A DNA stretch of 64,000 nucleotides from an uncultured Gemmatimonadales bacterium (GCA_963821525.1 CAWGED010000019.1:160001-224000); one strand, 5' to 3'; positions 4,692 to 44,949 are shown, counted from the stretch's first letter. The notes: a model not told the origin generated them from the sequence alone. Program-made: numbers and translations.

Positions 4692-6053
4692 TTACCGCTG
4701 CTTGTGCCTCCGCTCGATCACGTCCGCGGCCACATAATCGCCCGACGCCTCTTCATGCTCGAACTCGCCGGTGATTTCCTGATGTGAATGTCCGCGTTCC
4801 CGATCCAGCGTGATTTCGGCGAGCCGCGGGGAGACCATCGGGAAGGTGCGAGCGAAGATCCCATAGCAGAGCAGGAACAGTCCCAGGAATGCGGCGGTCG
4901 AGGCGAGCTCCGGCATGCCGAACACCGGACCCGGCTCTCGAGTCACCGAGGGCATCACGTCGAGATAGCGCTCCAGCCAGAGCGACACCAGACTGATCGA
5001 GGTGAAGAGTGCCAGGGTAAACGGCACCTTCTTGGGCAGCACACCGAGCAGGCCGAAGAAGGGAATGACGAACATGCCGAGGAACACGGTGCTGCCGATC
5101 GGGCGCCAAGGACCCCAGAGCCTGGCAAACAGGAATCCGGTTTCCTCGGGAAGGTTGCCGTACCAGATCACCAGGAACTGAGCCCACATGAGGTAAGCCC
5201 AGAATACGGTGAAGCCGAAGCAGAGCTTGCCCAGGTCGTGCCGCTGCTTGGGAGAGACGAGAGCGGCGATTCCCACCTCGTTGCGCCCGTAGAGCATCAG
5301 TAGCGCGAGAAGGGTATGGGCTCCCAGGAACGCGCCCATGAAGAACCAGCCGCCGAACAGGTTGGAGAACCAGTGGGGCTGCAGACCCATGACCATGTCG
5401 AATGCCACCAAGGTAAAGACGATGGCATAGACCACCACATACGCCGGAGCGAGGGTGTAGATGGTGTGATCGTTCCGCGCCCTGGCCTCGGGGGAGTCGT
5501 CATAGCCCGCGGTCCAGCGATCGTACATGGTGCGGCGCCGGCCGGTGAGCAGGGCCTTGGTCTCGAACATGTCGGGGATCAGGTCCGCGCGGATCAGCCG
5601 GTAGCCCAGGTAGTAGAGCAGGCACAGGCCGATGAAGAGCCGCCAGAACATGAAGCTGTGCGATAGCCAGAGCTCTTTCGCGTGCCCCAGCCCTTCCATC
5701 GCCGGGAAGATGTGGCTGTAGCCGACGGTGAAGATCAGCAGGAATCCAATCAGCGATACCGGGAAGAACAGGAAGGCGGCGGCCTCGGAGAACCGGATCA
5801 TCAGGCCCGACCACTTGGCCTTGGTCACCTTCTGCACCGCCACGAAGGCCATGCTGCCCCCGGTGAGGCTGGTGAAGAAGACCCAGTTCACATGAAAGAG
5901 GTGCCAGGCTCGATCGGCCTGAGCGCCGGTAAGCGAGATGCCGAGCAGGATCAGACCGGCCACGCTCAACACCGCTCCGAGGCCGACGAACAGGCTATAG
6001 CGCGCCGAGAGAGCCCGGATCGCGAGGGTTTCCCGTACGACTGTGCTGGCCAT
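4692..6053 (-). CDS. actF: Alternative complex III subunit ActF
   Basis: NrfD-like polytopic membrane protein with PHWFSNLFG and QFLVIWYGNLPEE; last gene of the act operon. Confidence 0.85.
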   Translation of the reverse strand: MASTVVRETLAIRALSARYSLFVGLGAVLSVAGLILLGISLTGAQADRAWHLFHVNWVFFTSLTGGSMAFVAVQKVTKAKWSGLMIRFSEAAAFLFFPVSLIGFLLIFTVGYSHIFPAMEGLGHAKELWLSHSFMFWRLFIGLCLLYYLGYRLIRADLIPDMFETKALLTGRRRTMYDRWTAGYDDSPEARARNDHTIYTLAPAYVVVYAIVFTLVAFDMVMGLQPHWFSNLFGGWFFMGAFLGAHTLLALLMLYGRNEVGIAALVSPKQRHDLGKLCFGFTVFWAYLMWAQFLVIWYGNLPEETGFLFARLWGPWRPIGSTVFLGMFVIPFFGLLGVLPKKVPFTLALFTSISLVSLWLERYLDVMPSVTREPGPVFGMPELASTAAFLGLFLLCYGIFARTFPMVSPRLAEITLDRERGHSHQEITGEFEHEEASGDYVAADVIERRHKQR

Positions 6054-22686: not shown

Positions 22687-22715
22687 TTGACACTTTGCAA
22701 ACCCAGCATTAGTCT
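22687..22715 (+). promoter_or_regulatory. sigma70 promoter of glnA
   Basis: TTGACA-17nt-TAGTCT in an AT-rich region. Confidence 0.7.
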
Positions 22716-22790
22716 AACACCCAGGCGGCCGGAAGAGGGTCACACCCCGAGATTTTTCTCCTGAGCCGTGGGACTTTCACTCCCGCGCCC

Positions 22791-22847
22791 GACCTTCGCA
22801 TCGAGGTCACCACCCAACGATGCTGGCTGGGGCGAGCATTCTTTTTT
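22791..22847 (+). terminator. Leader terminator with competing antiterminator upstream of glnA
   Basis: gatgctggc-tggg-gcgagcatt followed by cT6; gcatcg 22798-22803 is complementary to cgatgc 22818-22823. Confidence 0.55.
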
Positions 22848-22894
22848 GTAGATCGGCGAACGATTCCGCGTACCCTCACCTCTGGACGACATCC

Positions 22895-24357
22895 ATGGCC
22901 GCAACCACCAAACCCACAGCCGCCAAGCCTCGCTCGGCTGGCGAGCTGAAGCGCATCACCGACCTGATCAAAGAGCGCGGGATCAAGGTCATCGACGTCA
23001 AGTTCACCGACCTTCCGGGCACCTGGCAGCATTTCTCGATTCCCGCGGAGACGCTCGACGAGGACATGGTAAGGGAGGGGCTGGGTTTCGACGGGTCGTC
23101 TATTCGCGGGTTCCAGGCGATCAACGAGAGCGACATGCTGCTCATCCCGGACCTCTCGACCGCGTTCGTCGATCCGGTGCTCGAGGTTCCCACGCTCTCG
23201 ATCATCTGCGACATCTACGACCCGATCACGCTCGAGCCATACTCGCGGGATCCGCGCTTCATCGCCTTCAAGGCCGAGGAGTACCTGAAGACCACGGGGA
23301 TCGCGACCGCCTCGTACTGGGGGCCCGAAGCCGAGTTCTTCATCTTCAACTCGGTTCGGTTCGACCAGAACGCGCACGAGGGCTATTACCACATCGATTC
23401 GGATGAGGGCATCTGGAACTCCGGCCGGAATGGGACAGCCCAACGCGGGCCACCGGCCGCGGCACAAGGAAGGCTATTTCCCGGTCCCGCCGGTCGACCG
23501 GCTGCAGGATGTCCGCAGCAAGATCATGCTGGCGCTCATCGCGGCGGGCGTCCCGGTCGAGGTGCAGCACCACGAGGTGGGTACCGCCGGCCAGGCGGAG
23601 ATCGACTTCCGCTTCGGCCCGCTGGTGCAGACCGCCGACCGGCTGTTGACCTACAAGTACATCGTGAAGAACGTCTGCCACAACCTGGGCCTGACGGCGA
23701 CGTTCATGCCCAAGCCGCTCTTCGGCGACAACGGCTCCGGGATGCACTGCCATCAGTCGCTCTGGAAGGACGGCACGCCGCTGTTCTTCGACGAGAAGGG
23801 CTACGCCCTGCTTTCCGACACGGCGCGCTGGTATATCGGCGGCCTCATCGCCCACGCGCCGGCGCTGCTCGGACTCTGCGCTCCCACTACCAACAGCTAT
23901 CGGCGGCTGGTGCCGGGCTTCGAGGCGCCGGTCAACCTGATGTACTCGCAGCGGAACCGCTCGGCGATCTGCCGGATCCCGACCTATTCCGACAGCCCCA
24001 AGGCGCGGCGGGTCGAGTTCCGGGCCCCCGATCCCTCCTGCAATCCCTATCTCGCCTTCTCCGCCATGCTGATGGCCGGACTGGACGGGATCAAGCGCAA
24101 GATCGAGCCGCCCAAGCCGATCGACGAGGACCTGTACGAGCTCCACGACGAGCGGAAGTCGACCATCAAGATGGTTCCCGGCTCGCTCTCCGAGTCCCTG
24201 GACTGCGCTGGAGAAGGATCACGCCTTCCTGCTCGAGGGCGACGTCTTCACGCCGGACGTGATCGATACCTGGATCTCGATGAAGCGGACGAAGGATGTG
24301 GCACCGGTGTCACTGCGGCCGCATCCGTACGAGTTTTTCCTGTATTACGATGCGTGA
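22895..24357 (+). CDS. glnA: Type I glutamine synthetase; indels near 23435 and 24205
   Basis: [52 protein letters not shown]. Confidence 0.96.
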
Positions 24358-24362
24358 GGGTG

Positions 24363-24511
24363 GTAGCTGTTAGCCGTCAGCCGTTAGCGGTTAGCGGTTA
24401 GCGGTTAGCGGTTAGCGATTAGCGACGTCAGAAGAAGCCGTAGGTCATAAGCTCAGAGCTCATGACCTACGGCTTTTGGCTAACAGCTGGTGGCTAACAG
24501 CTAACGGCTGA
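24363..24511. repeat. TTAGCGG heptamer array and inverted GCTAACA/G arm around a hairpin between convergent glnA and P-II
   Basis: About 8 tandem units; inner hairpin aagccgtaggtcat..atgacctacggctt. Confidence 0.85.
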
Positions 24512-24904: not shown

Positions 24905-26229
24905 TCAGCGTGCTGCAGGCTGAGGAGTGAGTTTGGGAGCCGGCATGGGGACCTCGACTTCGGGCAGCACCAGAATGGAGCCTTCGCCGCTGCTGTAGGC
25001 CTCTTCCCCGTGCTGGGTCACGTCCAACCCGAGGCCCTCGAGAGGAGTCGCCACCCGGAGCGGAGCCACCAGGGCCAGGAACTTCAGAATGACAAAGGTC
25101 ATGATGCCGGCATAGGCCATGGACGCGAACGCCGCGATGGCCTGAATGCCCAGCTGGGCAGGATTGCCACCGAGCAGTCCGTCGGTTCCGCCCCAGGCCT
25201 TGAGCGCGAAGACGCCGGTGAGAAGCGCGCCGGTGAGGCCACCGATGCCATGGCCGGCAAACACGTCGAGCGAATCGTCGAGCCGGGTACGGGAACGGAG
25301 CACGATGGCGAAGTAGCTCGGGAATGCCGCGATCGCGCCGAGGGCCAGTGCGCCCAGCGGGCTCACGAATCCCGCGGCCGGCGTGATGGCCACGAGGCCG
25401 ACGACGATGCCGGTCGCGCCACCCACTGCGGTGGCATGGCCAGTCCGGAAGGAGTCGAGCGCCAACCCAGACCATCAAGGTGGCCATCGGCGCCAGGAAG
25501 GTGTTGATGAATGCGAGTGCAGCCGAGCCGTTGGCGGCGAGGGCGCTGCCCCCGTTGAACCCGAACCAGCCGAACCAGAGCAGGCCGGCGCCAAGTAGCG
25601 TGAAGGGCACGTTATGCGGAAGAATGGCCTGTCGGGCGTAGTCCTTCCGCGCACCGAGCACGCTCGCCGCGACAAGGGCCGAGATACCGGCGTTGATGTG
25701 CACGACGGTACCGCCGGCGAAGTCGAGGGTGCCCAGCTTGCCCAACCAGCCTCCGCCCCAGACCCAGTGCGCCACAGGACCGTAAACCATAAGTGTCCAG
25801 ATGCAGAGGAATGCCACGTAGGGACCGAACCGCATCCGCTCGACGATGGCTCCGGAGATCAGCGCCGCAGTGATGATCGCGAAGGTTCCCTGGATACGCC
25901 ATGAAGAGCACGTGCGGAATTGTCCCCTTCGGCTCGATGCCCACTCCATCCAGAAAGGCGTTCTGGAACGAGCCCAGGAATCCACTGCCCTCGGCGAAGG
26001 CCTCGCTGTACGCCACGAGAGCCCAGGTGATCCCGACGGCACCGAGGGCCACGAAGCTCATCATCATCGTGTTGAGCGAGTTCTTGGAACGGACCAGGCC
26101 ACCGTAGAAGAAGGCAAGCGCGGGTGTCATCAGCAGCACGAGCGCGGTGGACGTCAGCATCCAGGCCGTGTCGGCCGGAACGATGGTTGGCTGCGCATCC
26201 TGCACCATGGCAAGCAACGGGAGAGTCAT
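24905..26229 (-). CDS. amtB: Ammonium transporter; indels
   Basis: [47 protein letters not shown]. Confidence 0.95.
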
Positions 26230-26274
26230 GGCGGTGGGCCTCGAAGGGTGGCGAGAGGGTCGGTAACCGGGCGA

Positions 26275-26336
26275 CTGCATAATTAATACGGTTCGAAGCA
26301 GGGCCGCGCAAGAGCCGTGATCACCTAATTATGCAG
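26275..26336. promoter_or_regulatory. Inverted 11-bp operator-like repeats bracketing the probable amtB promoter
   Basis: CTGCATAATTA (26275-26285) and TAATTATGCAG (26326-26336). Confidence 0.6.
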
Positions 26337-26534
26337 AAGTCGCAGAGTAACTTAGGCACTACTGCAAGTATACAGGCATTCTTGCATATTCTGCCTTTAA
26401 TTCCGTGCTAGAATTACAGAGTTCTCAGGTCATCATCACGTAAACGCCGGGCGACTTACCCGCCCTGTCCAAGTGGAGTAGTAGCTCGTATGTTTATGCG
26501 GTTGAGTACTTTAGCTCCACGCTCCCCCGGACCC

Positions 26535-28235
26535 ATGACCGAGACACCCGAACCCCAGAACCGCCGCTCCCGCCTGATCACCCAGGGCGTCCAACGGTCC
26601 CCCAACCGCGCCATGCTCCGGGCGGTGGGGTTTGGCGATGCCGACTTCGATAAGCCCATCGTCGGTATCGCCAACGGCTATAGCACGATTACTCCGTGCA
26701 ATGCCGGCTTGAATGTCCTGGCGGACAGGGCGGACGAGGCGGTCAGGGCAGCGGGCGGGATGCCGCAGATGTTCGGGACGGTCACTGTGTCCGATGGCAT
26801 CTCCATGGGCACCGAGGGCATGAAGTATTCCCTCGTCTCCCGTGAAGTCATCGCCGATGCGATCGAAACCGCCTGTGGCGCCGAATCGATGGATGGGGTC
26901 GTGTGCGTCGGCGGCTGCGACAAGAACATGCCGGGCGCCATGATCGCGATGGCCCGGATGAACATCCCGGGGATCTTCGTCTACGGTGGCACCATCAAGC
27001 CGGGACATCTCCACGGGCAGGATCTCACCGTCGTGAGCGCCTTCGAGGCGGTGGGTCAGCACAGCGCGGGAAAAATCGGAGACCAGGAGCTGCTCGACAT
27101 CGAGCGGCACGCCTGTCCCGGCAAGGGCTCGTGCGGCGGGATGTTCACCGCTAATACCATGTCGTCGATCTTCGAGGCGATGGGGATGAGCCTGCCCTTC
27201 TCCTCGACCATGGCGGCGGAAGACGGCGAAAAGGCGGAGAGTGCCGCGGAATCGGGTCGCGTCCTGGTCGAGGCGATCAAGGCCCAGCTGCTGCCCCGCC
27301 AGATCCTCACACGACAGGCGTTCGAGAACGGGATTGCCGTATGCATGGCGCTGGGCGGTTCGACCAACGCCGTCCTTCACCTGCTCGCCATCGCTCACGC
27401 GGCGGAAGTCCCGCTCTCGCTCGACGATTTCGAAACGATCCGGGCGAAAGTGCCGGTGCTGTGCGACCTCAAGCCCTCAGGCCGCTTCGTCGCGACCGAT
27501 CTGCACAAGGCGGGCGGCGTCCCCCAGGTGATGAAGATTCTTCTCGCCAACGGGGTGCTGCACGGCGGCGAGCGAACTATTACCGGGAAGACGGTCGCAG
27601 AGGTCCTGGCCAAGGTTCCCGCCGAACCTCGGGGCGATCAGCAGGTGATCCGCCCTTGGAACCGACCCATCTACCCGCAAGGCCACCTCGCAATTCTGCG
27701 CGGCAATCTCGCGGCCGAAGGCGCGGTCGCGAAAATCACCGGCGTCAAGCAGAGCAAACTGACCGGGCCCGCTCGGGTGTTTGAATCCGAAGAGGATTGT
27801 CTCGAAGCGATCCTCGCCGGTCACATCAAGGCCGGAGACGTTCTGGTGATCCGCTACGAAGGCCCGCGCGGCGGGCCGGGAATGCGAGAGATGCTGTCTC
27901 CTACCTCCGCCATCATCGGTGCGGGTCTGGGCGACTCGGTAGGGCTAATCACCGATGGACGATTCTCGGGCGGCACCTTCGGCATGGTGGTCGGACACGT
28001 GGCGCCAGAGGCGGCGATCGGTGGAACGATTGCCCTGGTCCAGGAAGGCGATTCGATCACCATCGATGCCGAACGGCGAATGCTCAGCCTGAACGTTCCG
28101 GAACCGGAAATCGCTCAACGAAGGAAGGCGTGGACTCCTCCAGCACCACGATACCGGAGAGGCGTCCTGGCCAAGTATGCCCGGCTGGTATCCAGCGCCA
28201 GCGTCGGCGCGGTGACGGACAAGCTGGAGACGTGA
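26535..28235 (+). CDS. ilvD: Dihydroxy-acid dehydratase
   Basis: [45 protein letters not shown]. Confidence 0.96.
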
Positions 28236-28400
28236 GAGGTGAGACGTGAGAGGTGAGAGGTGAGAGCGCGCAGCGACGGTGGGACAAGGGGCGACAGGGA
28301 CAGCAAAGTATTGGGACAAATGACAACGGGGCATCCTCTCGGACGCCCCGCTGCTTTTTCCATGTCACGACCCAAGACTCACGACTATCGACTTCACGAC
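28228..28400. repeat. GTGAGAG/C and CACGACT-type heptamer arrays around a terminator-like hairpin
   Basis: gacgtgagaggtgagacgtgagaggtgagaggtgagag; cggggcatcc..ggacgccccg; cacgacccaagactcacgactatcgac. Confidence 0.7.
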
Positions 28401-28639
28401 CGAATCGGCAACATCACCGTAAACTTCAGCATCTGGTCCGGTAGGCTCGCCAAGTCTTCGTCCGTCAACTGTGGAGCCCGCTCGGCCACTGTACGCCGCA
28501 GCTCCTCCTCGTAGGGTCGCTGAATCTCCCGCGCGCACTCCTCGCAGAAATAGCCTTCGACGGTGCCGAACAGGCTCAGGAAGGCGGGACGACCGTCACG
28601 CTCGAGGGCTGGACGCTGGAAACATTGCTGGCACTTCAT
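28394..28639 (-). CDS. Small zinc-ribbon hypothetical protein (McsA N-terminus-like)
   Basis: MKCQQCFQRPA...FCEECARE; GGAGG upstream. Confidence 0.6.
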   Translation of the reverse strand: MKCQQCFQRPALERDGRPAFLSLFGTVEGYFCEECAREIQRPYEEELRRTVAERAPQLTDEDLASLPDQMLKFTVMLPIRS

Positions 28640-35472: not shown

Positions 35473-37026
35473 CTAGACTCCCCACAAGTACACCGAATTC
35501 AGCGACGACGCCTCCAGCACCTCAGCGTGCCGCTCCTTGTTGAGCGAATGCACCAGGGCCCGGGCACTCGCCTCCACGATGTCGGTCGAGGCACCCTGAC
35601 CCGTCATCGTCTTCCCACCAATCCGGGCCTGGAGGAAGACCTGACCCACGGAATCCCGGCCCGGAGTGACCGAGCGAAGTGACAGGCTCATCACCTCGAC
35701 CGGGCGATCGAGGATCTCGCTGATCGCGCTGAAGGCCGCCGCGATGGGCCCATCTCCGCTTCCTCGCGCAACTCGCTCCCCCGCCCACGGTCCGGTCATC
35801 TGAACCTCCGCCTCGGCAGGCACGCTCCCGCAGACGACCCGGAGCTTGGTGAGGTGGTATTCCTCCGGCGCGTCGTGGAAACTCTCGTGTACCAGTGCCA
35901 GCAGGTCCTCATCCAGAATCTCCCGCTTGCGATCGGCCAGCCGGATGAACTCCTGATAGAGATCCTGGAGCTGACGGTCGTCGAGCTGGTAGCCCAAGTC
36001 GCGATAGCGGCGTTCGAGCGCGTGCCGACCGGAATGCTTGCCGAGCACGAGGGTCGAGTGAGGTATCCCGACCGCTTCGGGCTTGATGATTTCGTAGGTG
36101 AGCCCGTTCTGCAGGATCCCGTGCTGATGAATCCCGGCCTCGTGGGCAAAGGCGTTGCGGCCCACGATCGCCTTGTTGGGCTGCGGGAAACTTCCGGTCA
36201 GGTAGGAGAGGAGCTGGCTGGTCCGGTAGATCTCCCGCGGATCCACGTTGCAGCGGAACGAGGCCACCTGAGGCCGGGTACGGCAGGTCATCACGATCTC
36301 CTCGAGCGCCGCGTTCCCTGCCCGCTCGCCGATCCCATTGACGGTACACTCGACCTGTCCCGCGCCGGCCTCGATCGCGGCCAGCGAATTGGCGACCGCA
36401 AGGCCCAGATCATCGTGGCAGTGCGCGCTGAAGATGACCCGCTCGCTTCCGGGGACGCGTTCGCGCACCGCGCGGAACATCGAGGCGTACTCCGCAGGCA
36501 GGGCGTATCCCACCGTATCGGGCAGGTTGATGGTCGTAGCGCCTTCCGCGATGGCCATTTCCACTATCTGGCAGAGGTAGTCGAGATCGGTCCGGCTCGC
36601 GTCTTCGGCGGAGAACTCGACGTCGTCGGTGTAGCTCCGCGCCTGGCGGATGGACTGGCGCGCCAGTTCGAGGACCTCTTCGCGAGTCAGCCTGAGCTTG
36701 TGCTCGAGGTGAAGCTCCGAGGTCGAGATGAAGATGTGGAGCCGGGGGCGCGCCGCATTCCGGATGGCATCGCCGGCGAGCGAGATGTCCTTCGGATGAC
36801 AACGCGCGAGCGCTGCCAGTACCGGGCGCCTGATTTCGCTGGTGATCTCCTGCACGCTGCGGAAGTCGCCCTCCGAGGCGGCGGGGAAGCCGGTCTCGAT
36901 GACATCGACCCCCAGAGCATCGAGCTGGCGGGCGAGGCGGAGCTTCTCCTCGGGCGTCATGGTGTTGCCTGGGGCCTGTTCCCCGTCCCGCAGGGTCGTG
37001 TCGAAAATGAGAACGTCCTTCAGCAT
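35473..37026 (-). CDS. leuA: 2-isopropylmalate synthase
   Basis: [41 protein letters not shown]. Confidence 0.96.
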
Positions 37027-37051
37027 TGCGTCTCTCGTCTCCTTGGAGGCC

Positions 37052-37086
37052 AAAAAGAAAACCGCGGACCTTTTCGGGGTCCGCGG
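37052..37086 (-). terminator. Attenuator terminator of the leu/ilv operon
   Basis: Minus strand ccgcggacc-ccgaaaa-ggtccgcgg-ttttcttttt. Confidence 0.85.
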
Positions 37087-37111
37087 CGGGAAGGGCTCGA
37101 TGTTGTATCGA

Positions 37112-37216
37112 CTATGCTGCTTGCCCGTAAACGCCGCGATCCCCGCCGAGGCCCCTAAGGAGGACCAGGACGAGGCTAATAAGGACGAGGAGCAGGACGG
37201 ACGACATGTGAGGCAT
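37112..37216 (-). CDS. Leu/Val/Ile-rich attenuation leader peptide MPHMSSVLLLVLISLVLVLLRGLGGDRGVYGQAA
   Basis: Run of BCAA codons directly upstream of the terminator and leuA; not in the ORF track. Confidence 0.85.
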   Translation of the reverse strand: MPHMSSVLLLVLISLVLVLLRGLGGDRGVYGQAA

Positions 37217-37257
37217 CAGGCTCCGGCGCAGGGCAACATTATGCAATCACTGACTGT

Positions 37258-37286
37258 AGGCTACGGGTCGCCCGGCGATAAGTCAA
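37258..37286 (-). promoter_or_regulatory. Putative sigma70 promoter of the leu leader
   Basis: Minus strand TTGACT-17nt-TAGCCT. Confidence 0.55.
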
Positions 37287-37609
37287 GCGACCGACCTGTC
37301 CTGACCGGAAACTGGCGCCGGTAGTCATCCCGGACGGCCACGAGACCATACTCTATTGAAGGACAAAGCGCCTGGTCACCAGCGCGTTCATTCGGGCAGC
37401 GGCCGAGGTTTTTGGTTACGTAGGCTCGGGCTTTCGGAGCGATATTGATCTTATGGGGGGGCCCCCGCTTAAGCAGGGCCGGGATTCCGGTGATGGAACG
37501 CACATTCCGCCACCAGGCGGACAGCGACACCGATCACTCGTCCCATCACAACCGAACGGTTCCTGCACCGGAACATTCTGACCATCGCCTTCCGCGCCAA
37601 TACCGGCCA

Positions 37610-37638
37610 TTGACCGCCCAACCACGGCGCCGTATAAT
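37610..37638 (+). promoter_or_regulatory. sigma70 promoter of the gltB leader
   Basis: TTGACC-17nt-TATAAT. Confidence 0.8.
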
Positions 37639-37645
37639 TATTCAC

Positions 37646-37720
37646 ATGAGCCGTCGCAGCGTCCGAAACGCTAATCCGGTCGCCATCGCCGCCCTTACCA
37701 AAGGGTGGGGGCCGGGATAG
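37646..37720 (+). CDS. Putative gltB leader peptide MSRRSVRNANPVAIAALTKGWGPG (probably leaderless)
   Basis: ATG 7 nt after the -10 box; 3' end is complementary to the terminator 5' arm. Confidence 0.65.
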   Translation: MSRRSVRNANPVAIAALTKGWGPG

Positions 37721-37747
37721 CGCGCGCGTTTGAACCGAACCTGTCCC

Positions 37748-37780
37748 GGCCCGCCCTCAAAACCAGCGCGGGCCTTTTTT
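37748..37780 (+). terminator. Attenuator terminator upstream of gltB
   Basis: ggcccgc-13nt-gcgggcc-T6, ending 20 nt before the gltB ATG. Confidence 0.75.
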
Positions 37781-37799
37781 CTTGCACCATGGGAGCGCA

Positions 37800-40700
37800 A
37801 TGAACCCCACCAAGTCGAGCCGGACGGTCGGACTCCAATCGCTTCGAGAGCACGATGCCTGCGGGGTAGGCTTCATCGCCTGCGCCACTGGCGAGCGCTC
37901 TCACACCGTGGTGAAGATGGCACTCCAGGCCCTCGGACGAGTGGCCCATCGCGGGGCAGCTTCGACCGACAACTCGGGCGATGGTGCGGGTCTTCTCACT
38001 CAGATTCCCACCCGATTCTTCTATCGCGAGGGCTACCGGCTCGGCCTTGGTATTCAACCCGGATTTCCCTTCGCCGTGGGCGCCTTCTTCCTGCCGCGCG
38101 AAGCCTCGGCACTCGCCGCTGCCATCGCCCTGATCGAGCGGGTGGCGTTTCAGAACGGGCTTCCGCTTCTGGGGTGGCGAGATGTTCCGATCGAACCCGC
38201 AGCACTCGGCCCCCTTGCTCGGCAGACATGCCCGGTCATTCGACAGGTCTTCCTGGGGCGGCCGGCAGTGGACGACGATGACGCCTGGGAGCGAGTTCTC
38301 TATCTCGCGAGGCGGGACATCGAACGGGAGGCGAGAGCGAGGGGACTCAATGACCTTTACGTCTGCTCCCTCTCCTGCCGGACCATCGTGTACAAGGCGC
38401 TGCTGGTAGGCACTCAGCTCGCGACCTTCTACACCGATCTCCGCTTCCCGGAGTTCGAAACAGCGATCGCCGTTTTCCACCAGCGCTACTCGACCAACAC
38501 GCTGCCCAGTTGGCCGTTGGCCCAGCCCTTCCGGATGATCGCCCACAACGGCGAGATCAACACCCTCTGGGGTAATCGCAACGCGATGACGGCCCGGGAA
38601 GCAGACCTGGGTTCGCCCGTCTGGGGGAACAACATCGAACGGCTCAAACCGGTGATCTGGCCGGAAGGGAGCGATTCGGCGGGGTTCGACAACACAATGG
38701 AGTTGCTGGTACGCTCCGGTCGGACGCCAATGCACACAATCATGATGCTGGTCCCTCAGGCCTGGGAGCAGTATCCCGACGTAGAACCGGCGATTCGCGA
38801 CTTCTACCGCTTCCACGCCGAAGTGGTCGAGCCTTGGGATGGGCCGGCCGCGCTGGCGTTCAGCGATGGCATCGTGGCGGGTGCAGCGACCGACCGGAAC
38901 GGGCTCCGTCCTTGCCGCTACAAGGTCACCCGGGATCAGTTCGTGGTCGCCGGATCGGAGGTGGGGCTGGTAGATCTCGATCCGGCGGACGTACTGGAGA
39001 GCGGAAAACTGGGCCCCTGCGAGTTCCTCGTGGTGGATGTGACCCGAGGTCAGGTGCTGCGGAACATGGACGTGAAGCGCGAAGTCGCGTCGCGCCAGCC
39101 GTATGGACGGTGGGCGCGGGAGAATCTGCGGCTCCTGCTCCCCGACCTCGCCGCCAAGTCCGAATCGCCGGAACCCGGGTCGCTGGTTCCCCATCAGATC
39201 AGCTTCGGGTACGGCCATGAGGACTTGAGGTTCGTGCTCGAGTCCATGGCGACGCAGGGCAACGACACCATTTGGAGCATGGGAGACGACACGCCGATCC
39301 CACCGCTCTCCCGGCTGCCACAGTCGGTATACGCCTACTTCCGCCAACGGTTCGCGCAGGTCACCAATCCGCCGATTGATCCGCTGCGGGAGTCGGTGGT
39401 GATGTCGCTGCGACAGCACCTGGGTCGTCACGGCTCCTTTCTGGTGGAGAGTCCCACGCACGCGAGACTGCTTCGCGTCGATCATCCCATTCTGCTCGAG
39501 GCCGAGATGGCCTCGCTCAGGAGCCAGCCCGGATTCCCCAGCCTGACGCTCGACGCGACTTGGCACCGCAGTGAGGGAACCGAGGGCCTGCGAGACGCGC
39601 TCGACCGGCTGTGCGCCGAGGCGGAGCAGGGAGCGAGAACCGGAATTCGCCTCGTGATCGTCAGCGATCGCCAGGCGAATGCGGAGCGGGTGCCGGTTCC
39701 CATGCTGCTTGCCATCGGAGCGGTGCGTCGCCACCTGATGGATCGTGGGCTTCGCCTCAGGGTCGGCCTGGTCGCCGAGGCGGGAGACGCGTGGGACATC
39801 CATCATTTCGCGACACTGATCGGATACGGTGCGGAGCTGGTGTATCCCTGGTTGGCATTGAGGTCGGTCGGCACGATGGTGGAGGGGAAAGCGGACGGGA
39901 CGAACGGGACGGACAAGGCGGACGGCTGTCGCCGCTACAGGACGGCCGCCGAGAAGGGGCTGCTCAAGATCATGTCCAAGATGGGCATCTCCGTGCTTCC
40001 CTCGTACTGCGGTGCCCAGATCTTTGAATCGCTCGGACTCGGCGCCGAAGTGATCGATCGCTGCTTCCGCGATACGACCTCCGCACTCGGTGGACTCGGC
40101 TTCGATGAGCTCGCCGAGGACGCGCTTGCGCGACACCGCCAGGCTTGGAGTCCAGAACCGAGCCGCAGCGTTCCGGACCATGGCCGGATCCGGTTCCGCA
40201 AGGAAGGGGAGGATCACGGCTGGGCGCCGCCGATCGTTGTTGCCCTGCAGAAAACAGTCCGCGCGGAATCGGGTGAAAGGAAAGGAAAGTACCAGGAGTT
40301 CCTGAACAAGAACGCGCTGCGGCCACCGGCCGGGCCGCGGGATCTCCTCACTTTCCGCGAGTCGTCCCCAGTCCCACTGGAAGAGGTCGAACCGGTCGAG
40401 TCCATCCTCCGCCGGTTCGTCAGCTCGGCAATGTCGCTCGGCGCTCTGTCGCCCGAAGCCCACTCGACCATTTCCATCGCGATGAACCGGATGGGCGCGC
40501 GATCCAATTCGGGAGAAGGGGGAGAGGATCCGGCCTTCTACTCGCCGCTTCCCAATGGAGATCGGGCCGACAATCGAGTGAAGCAGGTGGCCTCAGGGCG
40601 ATTTGGTGTGACCACCGAGTACCTGATCCGTGCCGAGGAGTTGGAGATCAAGATCGTCCAGGGTGCGAAGCCGGGTGAAGGCGGCCAGCTGCCCGGCCAC

Positions 40701-42318
40701 AAGGTCACCGAGTTGATTGCCCGGCTGCGGCACGCAGTCGCCGGGGATCTCCCTCATTTCGCCGCCCCCGCACCATGACATCTACTCGATCGAGGATCTG
40801 GCCCAGCTGATCCACGATCTCAAGACGGTCAATCCTCGAGCCCGGATCGGTGTCAAACTGGTGGCCGAGACCGGAGTTGGCACGGTCGCGGCTGGTGTGG
40901 CAAAGGCGTATGCCGACTACGTACTGATCGCGGGGCACAACGGCGGGACCGGCGCTTCACCACTCTCGTCGATCAAGCACGCCGGAAGTCCGTGGGAGCT
41001 GGGACTCGCCGAGGCGCAGCAGGCGCTGGTGAGAAACGGGCTGCGGAGCAGAATCGAAGTCCGGGTGGATGGTGGCTTCAAGACTGGTCGAGACGTGGTG
41101 ATCGCCGCATTGCTTGGCGCGGAATCGTTTGGCTTCGGCACCGCACCGCTCGTGGCGCTGGGCTGCGCCATGGCGCGCCAGTGTCACCTCAACACCTGCC
41201 CCACCGGTGTCGCCACTCAGCGACCCGATCTTCGGGCCAAGTTCAGCGGCACCCCTGAACAGGTGATCGCCTACTTCACGCTGGTTGCCGAGGAAGTCCG
41301 GGCGATTCTCGCCGGGCTTGGCGTCCGCACGATCGACGGGATCATCGGGCGCGCAGATCTGCTCAAGCGAATCGAGCGTCCCGATCTGCCCCGGGCTCAA
41401 ATGCTGGATCTCTCAAACCTGCTGACTCGAGCGGACGAGGGTGGCGGAGCTTCACGGCGTCTCGTCGCCCGGAATGACCGGCCCGGTGTGGTCTCGCTCG
41501 ACCGCGAAATCCTGCAGGAGTGCCGAGGGCACATCGAGGCCGGACTGCCCTTCTCGGGACTCTATCAGATTCGGAACCATCACCTGACCGCTGGCGCGGG
41601 AGTCGCCGGTGCGATCGCTGAGCGATACGGTGACGCGGGACTACCCAACGGTCATCTCCAGCTCCGGTTCCTGGGCAGCGCGGGACAGAGTTTCGGAGCC
41701 TTCGCTACTCGCGGGATGCTGCTGGATCTCGAAGGAGAGGCGAACGACTACGTCGGCAAGGGTCTCTCGGGCGGCACGATCAGCATCCGGCCCTTTCGAA
41801 CCGCTGGGTACGCCGCCGCGACCCACGAGAACGTGATCCTCGGAAACACGGCACTCTACGGTGCAACTGCGGGCAAGTTGTTCGCGGCTGGACAGGCAGG
41901 CAGCCGCTTCGCGGTCCGAAACAGCGGCGCCATCGCGGTGATTGAAGGCGCCGGCAACCATTGCTGCGAGTACATGACCGGTGGGCTGGTCCTGGTGCTG
42001 GGCCCGATCGGCCGGAACTTTGGGGCTGGCATGAGCAACGGCGTCGCATACGTGCTCGATGAATCGGGTGGCTTTCCGTCGCGGGTCAACACCGAGATGG
42101 TCACGCTTGCTCTGTTCGAGGGACGCGACGAGTCGCTGGTGCAGTCGCTCTTGCACGAGCATCTCGAGCGGACCGGGAGCCCTCGCGCCGGCGCGTTGAT
42201 CGCGCGGTGGGACTACTATCGCGGCCTGTTCCGGAAGGTCGTCCCCAACACGCAGCCGGGAAAATCACCGGAGCCGGTCCAGCCCCCGATCCCCGAGGGC
42301 GCGGCAGCCCTGCGGTAG
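37800..42318 (+). CDS. gltB: Glutamate synthase large subunit; indel near 40740
   Basis: HDACGVGF, HQRYSTNT, HNGEINT, EPWDGPA, QGAKPGEGGQLPG, CAMARQCHLNTCPTG. Confidence 0.96.
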
Positions 42319-42424: not shown

Positions 42425-43099
42425 ATGTCATTGCCGCTCAATGAGAAAGAGCGCAATCCCGCCCGCTCCCGCGAAGCCATTTTGGACGCCGGGGAAGCGC
42501 TTTTCGCCGAGAATGGGTACGAGGGTACCAGCCTGAGCGATGTGGGCACCCTCGCCGGCGTCTCCCGCGGAACCCCGGGATATTTCTTCGGCTCCAAGGC
42601 CGAACTCTACCGCGCCGTGCTGGAGCGCTGCTTCGGAGAAGTGCTGGACGCGGTCCGGGCCGGGCGAGCACGGGCTCTCGCCAGCGCGGCAGAACCGGAA
42701 GCCGTCCTGGCCGGTGCCGTTTCCGATTATTTCGACTTTCTCGCGTCCCGTCCCAACTTCGTGCGCCTGATCGAATGGGAGGCGCTCGCCGGCGGCACTC
42801 AGCTGGAAGAAGTGCCACCGCATGTCGCCGCGGCGCAGGAAGCTCTCTCGGCACTGCGTGATGAGCTGGCTATGGGACCGGGCATGTCGCAGGACGCCGC
42901 CCATCTCCTCCTCAGCATCATCGGTCTCTGCTGGTTCCCCCTCGCTCACGCCAATACCGTCCTCCGCGCTCTCGGCATCGACCCCGAGGATCCCGCCTTT
43001 CTCGAGCAGCGGAAACGGCACGTCATCGATCTCGTCCTGAACGGCCTGCGCGGACGATTTGCCTCCGCCGTTGCCACCGGAGAAACCGACCATGCCTGA
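42425..43099 (+). CDS. TetR/AcrR family transcriptional regulator
   Basis: ILDAGEALFAENGYEGTSLSDV..AGVSRG..YFFGSKAELY. Confidence 0.92.
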   Translation: MSLPLNEKERNPARSREAILDAGEALFAENGYEGTSLSDVGTLAGVSRGTPGYFFGSKAELYRAVLERCFGEVLDAVRAGRARALASAAEPEAVLAGAVSDYFDFLASRPNFVRLIEWEALAGGTQLEEVPPHVAAAQEALSALRDELAMGPGMSQDAAHLLLSIIGLCWFPLAHANTVLRALGIDPEDPAFLEQRKRHVIDLVLNGLRGRFASAVATGETDHA

Positions 43100-44949
43100 T
43101 GTGATGACTCCTCCGGCGCCTGGTGCACCGCCGCAGCTCGCCACGGAGAAGGAAGCCCGCGAAGTCGCGGAAGCCGCACGCGAGAAGGAGTGGCAGGCCC
43201 CAAGCTTCGTCCGCGAGATGTTCGATGGAAACTTCCGGCTCGACCTGATCCACCCCTACCCCGAGCAGGATCCCGCCGAAGTCGAGCGTGCCCGCCCGTT
43301 CCTGGAGCGGCTCGAGGCCTTCATGCGCGACAAGGTGGACAGCGACAAGATCGACCGCGACGGGAAAATCCCGGAAGAGGTAATTCAGGGGCTGCGCGAC
43401 ATCGGCGCTTTCGCCATCAAGATCCCGACCGAATACGGTGGATTGGGACTGAGCCAGACGAGCTACACCCATGCCATCGCTCTGGTGACCAGCCAGGACG
43501 GGAACCTCACGGCCCTGCTCTCCGCCGCCCAGTCGATCGGGGTGCCCAACCCGCTCAAGCAGTTTGGAACGCCGGAACAGAAGAAGAGGTACTTCCCTCG
43601 CCTCGCCAAAGGCGCGATCTCGGCGTTCGCGCTGACCGAGTCGAACGTGGGATCTGACCCCGCCGGCATGCAAACCACAGCGAGAGCTCTCACCCGATGG
43701 ACGGCACTGGATCCTGAACGGCGAAAAGCTCTGGTGCACCAACGGCACCATCGCCGAGTTGATGGTGGTGATGGCGCGGACCGGTCCGAAGAAAATCACG
43801 GCGTTCATCGTGGAGACCAACTGGCCCGGGGTCGAAGTGGTGCAGCGGCTCCATTTCATGGGGCTCAAGGCACTGGAGAACGGAATCATCCGGTTCACCA
43901 ACGTGAAGGTCCCGGTCGAGAACGTGCTCTGGGGCGAAGGTCGCGGGCTCAAGCTGGCGCTGATCACCCTCAACACCGGCCGCCTGACGCTGCCGGCCTC
44001 CTGCGTCGCCGCGGGCAAGCGCTGTCTCCAGATCGTGCGTGAGTGGGGGTCTACCCGGGTGCAATGGGGCCAGGCGATCGGGAAGCACGACGCGATAGCT
44101 CAGAAGATCGGACGGATGGCGGCGGAGACCTTCGCGATGGAAGCGGTCTCCGACCTCGCCTCCGGCATGGCCGATAAGGGCGGCTTCGACATCCGGCTCG
44201 AGGCCGCGATGGCGAAGATGTGGAATACCGAGACCGCGTGGCGGATCGCGGACGACACTCTTCAGATCAAGGGCGGACGTGGCTACGAGACTGCCGACAG
44301 TCTGCGGAGCCGCGGAGAGAAGCCCGATCCGGTCGAGCGCCTCATGCGAGACATGCGGATCAACCTGATCTTCGAGGGATCAAGCGAGATCATGCGGCTC
44401 TTCATCGCCCGGGAGGCGGTGGATACCCACATGCGGGTCGCGGGCGACCTGATCGATCCCAAGGTCCCGGCGGGCCAGAAGCTGGGTGCCCTGCTCAAGG
44501 CGGGAGCCTTCTACGCCTTCTGGTATCCCAAGCTCTGGCTCGGTGTGCGAGGGTGGTTCGGGTTCGGCGAATTCGGCCGGCTGGCTCCGCACATGCGCTT
44601 TGTCGAGCGGTCGTCGCGACGGCTGGCCCGCTCGCTCTTCCATTGTATGGTGCGCTTCGGTCCCATGCTGGAGAAGCGGCAGGCAGTCCTGGGCCGGCTG
44701 GTGGAAATTGGAGCGGAACTGCTCGCGATCGCCGCAGCCTGCAGCCGGGCGCATGCGATGCTCAAGAAGAATCCCCGGGAGACGGGTCCCCGCGAGCTGG
44801 CCGACGTCTTTTCCCAGCAGGCGAGACTCCGGGTGGAGCAGAAGTTCCACGACCTATGGCACAACACCGACACGGCGACCTATACTACCGCGCGCCACGT
44901 GCTGGACGATCACTTCCGCTGGCTGGAAGAGGGGATCGTCCGGGAGTAA
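43092..44949 (+). CDS. Acyl-CoA dehydrogenase (VLCAD/ACAD9-like); indel near 43695
   Basis: SAFALTESNVGSD, NGEKLWCTNG, QIKGGRGY, RINLIFEGSSEI. Confidence 0.92.

Follow-up and report, generated by a model that had tools for sequence, protein, structure and literature searches.

A leader reading frame with asparagine codons as a probable nitrogen-responsive attenuator of gltB in Gemmatimonadales

What can a short open reading frame (ORF) that contains no glutamate (Glu) and no glutamine (Gln) codon report to the glutamate synthase gene it precedes? This question is raised by a stretch of 64,000 nucleotides (nt) from an uncultured Gemmatimonadales bacterium (GCA_963821525.1, CAWGED010000019.1:160001-224000; hereafter the window), in which gltB, encoding the large subunit of glutamate synthase, is preceded by a promoter, a 24-codon ORF and a set of competing RNA helices ending in an intrinsic terminator (Table 1). 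This element is almost certainly a genuine attenuator. From its sequence and that of its relatives, it is probably ribosome-mediated and would use asparagine (Asn) codons as a proxy for nitrogen supply, backed by isoleucine (Ile), leucine (Leu), valine (Val) and alanine (Ala) codons.

The gltB leader and its conservation

An earlier note, made from the sequence alone, had described the promoter, an ORF starting 7 nt after the -10 hexamer, and three helices (1:2, 2:3 and 3:4) followed by a run of six T (T6); all were found where it had placed them, the helices being borne out by folding. The promoter is the sole promoter-like site in 36500-38500, a region for which shuffled sequence yields 0.4 +/- 0.6 sites. 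The antiterminator region (37700-37760) folds with -35.6 kcal/mol (z -3.3, equalled by 0/200 shuffles) and the terminator (37748-37774 plus T6) with -16.2 kcal/mol (z -2.6), the latter having been overlooked by a simple terminator scan because its loop is long. Regarding the trp-like layout that had been proposed, competition between 2:3 and 3:4 holds; in the minimum-energy fold, however, 1:2 coexists with the lower 12 base pairs (bp) of 2:3, so that this helix alone, unlike its counterpart in trp, would not keep the terminator safe from the antiterminator. In the window, Rfam returned no match in gathering or E-value mode (best Trp_leader, 14.4 bits vs a threshold of 41), and its covariance models, including those of the T-box, the glutamine riboswitches and the Trp, Leu, Thr, His and Phe leaders, revealed no T-box.

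The element is widespread among relatives. Indeed, gltB was detected in 153/401 family genomes and its upstream region was anchored at 118 family loci (L120 and L152, among 129 listed gltB loci, were dropped for absence of the anchor motif); the attenuation architecture was present at 104 of these 118, in 24 genera, 98 being found by motif search and 6 by eye. Moreover, each of 43 genomes yielded a single strong match to a covariance model of the element, and this match lay at gltB in every case where the position of gltB is known. In 70 aligned sequences, the terminator stem 3:4 is paired in 95% of cells with 24 double changes (0/500 shuffles as good), and the antiterminator 2:3 is paired in 88% vs 37-60% when slid, with only weak covariation (9 double changes, 29/500 shuffles as good), both counts of double changes being inflated by the kinship of the sequences. 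Covariation, proposed as a check in the earlier note, is thus clear for the terminator and weak for the antiterminator.

An ORF of 20-28 codons that ends inside segment 2, 9-25 nt from its beginning, was recovered by script in 97/98 motif-detected elements, one start being re-picked by hand, and an equivalent ORF was recognized by eye in the 98th. ATG was counted 105 times in the frame of this stop and 13 and 15 times in the remaining two. The uORF (the leader ORF) is therefore conserved, but the search for conserved residues, which the earlier note had proposed as a check along with uORF conservation, found none: the ratio of nonsynonymous to synonymous substitution rates (dN/dS) is 0.93, no residue is invariant, and what is conserved is the codon set, not the peptide. 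Leaderless translation, also suggested, fits this genus and a number of others, in which 5-8 nt separate the -10 hexamer from the ATG, but not about nine genera, which have a leader of 50-70 nt.

In the sister family (Gemmatimonadaceae by named loci; 3/20 loci dropped for absence of the anchor motif), an analogous leader and terminator occur at 6/17 anchored loci and 2/3 others, all preceding the more distant GltB type. Six Gemmatimonadota loci within a set of 80 related loci were devoid of the element (0/6). A search of metagenomes with the pattern gave 122 loci, 80 of which were read; most true matches were gltB leaders and about a quarter were chance matches; these matches were left out of all counts. 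The 14/118 family loci without the element have a divergent LysR-like gene (4), other leaders or an operon-internal gltB. At L153-L155 and L180, the LysR-like gene was seen by eye to take the attenuator's place in a GltC-like arrangement, and two other conserved, apparently structured leaders precede gltB at L191 and L192 (g70, g14) and at L194 and L196 (g82), where the attenuator is absent; both are candidate riboswitches.

Control-zone codons and the signal they may carry

The codons were analyzed in a control zone, defined as all codons whose first base lies 15-42 nt upstream of segment 2, which in this genome holds Asn AAC at 37667 and Asn AAT at 37673 followed by Pro-Val-Ala-Ile-Ala-Ala. 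Asn accounts for 14.3% of this zone vs 2.4% in genes, a sixfold enrichment that is the highest of all residues (0/20000 resamplings), and Leu for 19.4% vs 10.3% (P 5e-5), followed by Ile (7.8 vs 4.4%), Val (11.8 vs 7.8%), Ala (15.9 vs 11.4%) and lysine (5.0 vs 2.7%; P 0.02-0.04 for these four), whereas Glu (0.5 vs 5.5%), Gln (1.9 vs 3.3%) and arginine (Arg; 2.2 vs 8.3%) are less frequent than in genes; these percentages are weighted by genus, and it tempers the comparison that the genera are related and the background codon use is that of this genome only. Asn is present in the zone of 80/97 leaders vs about 20% expected. Of 130 AAT and AAC triplets, 123 are in frame, a preference shared by both frame classes, the corresponding proportion for ordinary genes being 44-59%. 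Wobble or rare codons are favored in the leaders: the share of AAT among Asn codons is 71%, compared with 29% for genes, and that of ATT among Ile codons 53%, compared with 17%. The indirect sensing through other amino acids envisaged in the earlier note is therefore supported, Leu being strongly and Ile, Val and Ala mildly enriched, but Asn had been missed, as had the related Asn-rich leaders elsewhere. As the control codons do not match the end product of the regulated pathway, the gltB leader is a variant and not an ordinary member of the attenuators.

Asn synthesis needs the amide nitrogen of glutamine, and the amino group of Ala, Val, Leu and Ile comes from glutamate. In the proposed mechanism, a ribosome reaching the leader stop would cover segment 2, so that the 3:4 terminator forms and gltB is off; a ribosome lagging 15-42 nt upstream would leave segment 2 exposed, so that it pairs with segment 3 while segment 4 is still to be transcribed, allowing read-through into gltB. 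A shortage of glutamine amide nitrogen would lower charged tRNA-Asn at an early stage, Asn requiring both glutamate-derived amino nitrogen and glutamine amide nitrogen, via AsnB or GatCAB, while the branched-chain and Ala codons would report failing glutamate-dependent transamination. Given these dependences, the leader may act as an OR-gate on products of the glutamine synthetase-glutamate synthase (GS-GOGAT) cycle rather than on Glu or Gln, and the tRNAs for Asn, Ala, Val, Leu and Ile would be the first to lose their charge in these bacteria. At initiation, there may be a further layer of control by a repressor, which is possibly ArgR. This genome has genes for asparaginyl-tRNA synthetase (AsnRS), GatB and several AsnB-like proteins, those examined lying among polysaccharide genes, while neither glutaminyl-tRNA synthetase (GlnRS) nor AsnA was found in it; GlnRS occurs in 22/70 family genomes, mostly non-carriers of the element.

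In thermodynamic switch models with an assumed ribosome footprint, the equilibrium probability of the terminator, averaged over the 97 leaders, is 0.48-0.52 with the A site 24-36 nt upstream of segment 2 and reaches 1.0 for a ribosome at the stop. In the co-transcriptional version, a stall at least 9 nt upstream lets segment 3 be captured ahead of the emergence of segment 4 in 97-99% of leaders; the figure is 36% for a ribosome at the stop and 86% without a ribosome. Without a ribosome, the equilibrium probability of the terminator is 0.12 for this leader and 0.80 on average.

Several observations weigh against Asn as the principal signal. For this leader at equilibrium, a ribosome on the Ala and Leu codons gives a terminator probability of 0.34-0.48, but one standing on the two Asn codons, or immediately beyond them, gives 0.70-1.0, only the co-transcriptional snapshot favoring antitermination at Asn (0.67-0.81 vs 0.37). 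Asn is absent from the zone in 17/97 leaders (7/12 in g13, 6/12 in g89), which mostly have CTT or ATT instead, and Gemmatimonadaceae leaders are Ile-rich with one to three Asn. Ile-Asn and Ala-Val exchanges are common, which together with the dN/dS value indicates that none of the codons is individually required. The leaders make no use of Gln codons although most carriers have no GlnRS, and in Escherichia coli, ribosomes under nitrogen limitation stall at Gln, not Asn, codons (10.1101/224204). AsnRS being present, imported Asn could mask the signal. No Asn leader of the gltB type precedes amtB-glnK or glnA in this genome, a glnK survey found a leader at 0/9 starts located among 30 loci (most glnK follow amtB), and leaders that precede a HAD hydrolase contain Asn as well. 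To these points are added the weak covariation of 2:3 and the RNA contigs from 4 of 10 listed runs, which touch gltB and leuA, none spanning 37185-37754; one contig of 260 nt starts at 37787, contigs being unable to reveal RNA ends.

These points leave room for other explanations. That the working codons are Leu, Ile, Val and Ala, in an ilv-type leader recruited to gltB with Asn secondary, appears unlikely. All 97 leaders have at least two Ile, Leu or Val codons, CTT and ATT, which are rare codons of the neighboring ilv leader, dominate in g13 and g89, and the raised Leu, Ile, Val and Ala frequencies and the read-through predicted with the ribosome at the Ala and Leu codons of this leader would also fit; but the enrichment of Asn in the zone exceeds that of all other residues, Asn makes up only 1.3% of true ilv leaders, g1, g4, g27, g56, g60 and g91 average 1.8-2.9 Ile, Leu or Val codons in the zone, and sister leaders with Asn only exist. 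We consider quite unlikely a general sensor of translation speed, opened by any starvation or slowing and merely tuned in its sensitivity by AAT, ATT and CTT. Such a sensor has a precedent in the mycobacterial whiB7 leader (PMC10274678) and would accommodate the dN/dS value, the free exchange among eight residues, a modelled antitermination that is flat for stalls 9-42 nt upstream and the capture of segment 3 in most leaders without a ribosome. However, it would not exclude the ten residues Glu, Asp, Gly, Gln, Arg, Ser, His, Phe, Tyr and Trp, whose combined share is 8% in the zone and 47% in ordinary genes, and the sister leaders are amino-acid specific.

The peptide itself might instead stall on a metabolite such as Glu, Gln or 2-oxoglutarate, in the manner of TnaC or SpeFL, or Arg codons might be the sensor, as the loose hydrophobic-plus-Asn pattern, the presence of Arg in 92/97 leaders and between the Asn codons of tRNA-Asn leaders, and an ARG-like box at the promoter could suggest. 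We judge this very improbable in view of the lack of an invariant residue, the dN/dS value and a C-terminus read in different frames; Arg is depleted in the control zone, and its 17% near the leader start equals the out-of-frame level of 13-16%. The stalling at GWGPG-stop advanced in the earlier note is accordingly rejected, since the peptide is not conserved (GWGPG occurs only in 4 genus-mates) and segment 2 is read in frames 0, 1 and 2 in 34, 61 and 2 of the 97 leaders, and its suggestion of Arg codons as sensor is not supported either. Least probable of all is a ligand- or protein-controlled RNA switch to which the ORF would be incidental. The sequence of segments 2-4 is strongly conserved, and a gltD riboswitch candidate and glutamine riboswitches are described at glutamate synthase genes elsewhere (PMC8632094); nevertheless, there is no Rfam match, nothing resembling an aptamer is conserved on the 5' side of segment 2, and the in-frame ATG excess and a codon bias that follows the ORF frame in both classes speak against an incidental ORF. 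Asn-codon sensing by the translating ribosome, backed by Ile, Leu, Val and Ala codons, thus stays the explanation that we favor.

Sister attenuators, promoter palindrome and gene neighborhood

Support for the idea that leader codons name the signal in this lineage comes from other leaders. The divergent leuA leader served as an internal control: at 48 related loci it comprises 44% Leu, 18% Val and 7% Ile (69% together) with 1.3% Asn. In addition, all 16 weaker matches of the covariance model were fetched and proved to be sister attenuators, which share the core but differ in their codons: seven are rich in Asn, two in Phe and two in Cys, three combine Cys, Met, Asn and His and precede a HAD hydrolase, and two are unclear. 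The Phe-rich leaders precede DAHP synthase and prephenate dehydratase genes which, together with the leuA leader, argues for this reading of the codons.

Asn-rich leaders recur. With antiterminator and terminator, one precedes a second-type tRNA-Asn(GTT) in 17/45 copies (15 by script, 2 by eye) in 11 genera, and 0/25 housekeeping tRNA-Asn copies; in these leaders, Arg lies between the Asn codons. Another precedes a GAF-sigma54 activator at 7/11 loci (L503-L513), the protein being closest to NifA but below the NifA cut-off, with no nif genes seen around it in this genome. Four porin genes (Gcw_chp, BBP2) also have Asn-rich leaders, those checked adjoining polyamine ABC transporter or putrescine aminotransferase genes, as does a glnK-amtB operon at one locus only (L258). 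This genome has two such sisters, at the tRNA-Asn and the NifA-like activator. We tentatively propose, with somewhat more doubt than confidence, a Gemmatimonadales nitrogen 'ribulon' in which stalling at Asn codons would turn on gltB and glnK-amtB together with the NifA-like sigma54 activator, the extra tRNA-Asn gene and porins serving nitrogenous solutes. If so, the charging of one tRNA would do the job fulfilled elsewhere by glutamine-sensing GlnD/NtrBC or GlnR.

Of the 10 matches given by a genome-wide leader scan, two, both on C19, correspond to the ends of pilin genes, and two more are doubtful. On the same contig, a Thr/Ile/Lys/Met-type leader stands before an M20-like peptidase gene (G000 C19, about 748650-748920; L223) and a Phe leader before prephenate dehydratase (about 1064450-1064620). 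A stand-alone HAD hydrolase with a Cys/Met/Asn/His leader attenuator was seen at L259, L260, L262, L293, L305, L313, L325, L335 and L336.

Regarding the promoter, the palindrome over the -10 hexamer is the top-scoring site of its kind in the genome, with a matrix built from gltB promoters, and it is kept at a locus where the attenuator is lost (L179). It resembles the ARG box consensus, as a single box that overlaps the -10 hexamer and is so partly confounded with the promoter. A similar box lies at the start of argG, another precedes an rpiB-like gene, and an ArgR gene is present. As gltBDF of E. coli is repressed by ArgR (PMC1784095) and ArgR of Streptomyces binds nitrogen-gene promoters (PMC3293853), an ArgR-type operator is plausible here from the sequence.

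By similarity, the genome is a member of the Gemmatimonadales, its close homologues with names belonging to Gemmatimonadota, and the window holds a nitrogen and branched-chain cluster (glnA, glnK, amtB, ilvD, leuB-D-C, ilvC-N-B, leuA and gltB). No gltD adjoins gltB and none was found in the genome, which is 81% complete. The gltB frameshift near 40750 is confined to this assembly and is likely an assembly error, since other genes of the genome are broken likewise and genus-mates are open over 1522-1542 codons. Frameshifts are frequent in window positions 24905-26280, 22900-24400 and 43059-44949 (amtB, glnA, acyl-CoA dehydrogenase, aspS), and contigs C1/C12 and C7/C8 of this genome (G000) are near-duplicates; this is strain mixture together with indel errors in the assembly. 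Upstream of glnA (22690-22900, + strand) lie a promoter TTGACA-17-TAGTCT and a 180-nt leader with terminal hairpin and T run, in which no start-led ORF was seen and no Rfam match obtained, possibly a cis-regulatory RNA of a new type. Between divergent amtB-glnK and ilvD (26270-26500), there are several palindromic boxes resembling the gltB operator.

Table 1. Coordinates of the gltB leader element and related features (window positions unless a contig or locus is named)
Feature	Position	Strand	Basis or remarks
Sigma-70-type promoter TTGACC-17-TATAAT	37610..37638	+	-35 TTGACC 37610-37615, 17-nt spacer, -10 TATAAT 37633-37638; 11/12 consensus matches; geometry same in relatives
14-bp imperfect palindrome over -10 hexamer and start site	37631..37644	+	Candidate operator, conserved in relatives
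Leader ORF, 24 codons, predicted leaderless	37646..37720	+	ATG 37646, TAG 37718-37720; equivalent ORF in relatives
Control zone	37661..37690	+	Codon statistics, 97 leaders, 21 genera
Segment 1	37689..37696	+	Pairs with 37701-37708 (8 bp); sequence variable in relatives
Segment 2, antiterminator 5' strand, overlapping last leader codons and stop	37703..37720	+	
Segment 3, common to antiterminator and terminator	37741..37756	+	
Intrinsic terminator	37748..37780	+	3:4 stem 37748-37774, T6 37775-37780
gltB, glutamate synthase large subunit	37800..42318	+	NF008730 match, both halves
Divergent Leu/Val/Ile leader peptide	37112..37216	-	Terminator 37087-37061; before leuA-ilvB-ilvN-ilvC-leuC-leuD-leuB
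Asn-rich tRNA-Asn leader in this genome	G000 C7 about 28215-28456	+	Leader near 28255-28380; shares Arg-Asn-Ala-Asn with gltB leader
Asn-rich tRNA-Asn leader loci	L431-L434, L465, L470-L472, L475, L479, L481, L482, L488, L493, L494, L498, L269		
Asn-rich activator leader in this genome	C8 77100-77290	-	
Asn-rich activator leader in this genome	C7 about 5000-5160	+	

Comparison with known systems

Leader-peptide attenuators are taught as end-product sensors of single amino-acid pathways, the classical ones being trp, his, leu, thr, ilvGMEDA and pheA of E. coli. Like them, the gltB leader has a short ORF with rare control codons, a stop on segment 2, competing helices and a U tract, and its multi-residue sensing recalls the thr and ilv leaders. 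Unlike them, it targets nitrogen assimilation instead of the biosynthesis of the amino acid that its codons specify, its control residue is Asn with no run of one codon, and it matches no Rfam family; unlike in trp, its 1:2 helix spares most of 2:3, so that in this genome transcription is predicted to continue into gltB when the leader is not translated. Although conserved where nitrogen enters metabolism, the device does not use codons for the products of the pathway it controls; this points to Asn-tRNA as a proxy of nitrogen supply, the Asn codon recurring at several nitrogen genes and a tRNA-Asn gene. It would thus offer a testable model of nitrogen control for an abundant, barely studied soil phylum, as well as a short, portable nitrogen-responsive switch part.

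Glutamate synthase is controlled by GltC in Bacillus. The comparative attenuation surveys of the Lyubetsky group might contain predicted Asn leaders. In E. coli, gltBDF is controlled by Lrp, IHF, Crp and ArgR (PMC1784095), and glutamine riboswitches and the gltD motif are found at glutamate synthase genes (PMC8632094). The known systems at the same target gene thus consist of promoter proteins or ligand-binding RNAs, none of them a translated leader. The earlier note knew of no gltB attenuator of this type, and no gltB leader-peptide attenuator was found in the literature searched, nor any Asn-codon attenuator or attenuation in Gemmatimonadota, although supplementary motif tables (PMC8632094) or subscription surveys might hold a prediction.

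Other close parallels are known from mycobacteria and Clostridium. The polycysteine leaderless short ORFs of mycobacteria, forming a 'Cys ribulon' (10.1101/834739), are likewise leaderless sensory ORFs placed before several operons with one control residue, but they gate a ribosome-binding site and sense Cys whereas the gltB leader gates an intrinsic terminator with Asn and branched-chain codons. The mycobacterial whiB7 uORF (PMC10274678) is similarly variable with one enriched residue and antiterminates on stalling; it responds to several starvations, is enriched in Ala and controls a transcription factor, while the gltB leader is enriched in Asn and controls glutamate synthase. Finally, the two-codon Asn/Glu T-box of Clostridium acetobutylicum, as described in a review (PMC4052509), also reads the charging of tRNA-Asn for amide-nitrogen metabolism by antitermination, but it binds the uncharged tRNA directly and controls a transamidation operon, whereas in the gltB leader the sensor would be the translating ribosome.

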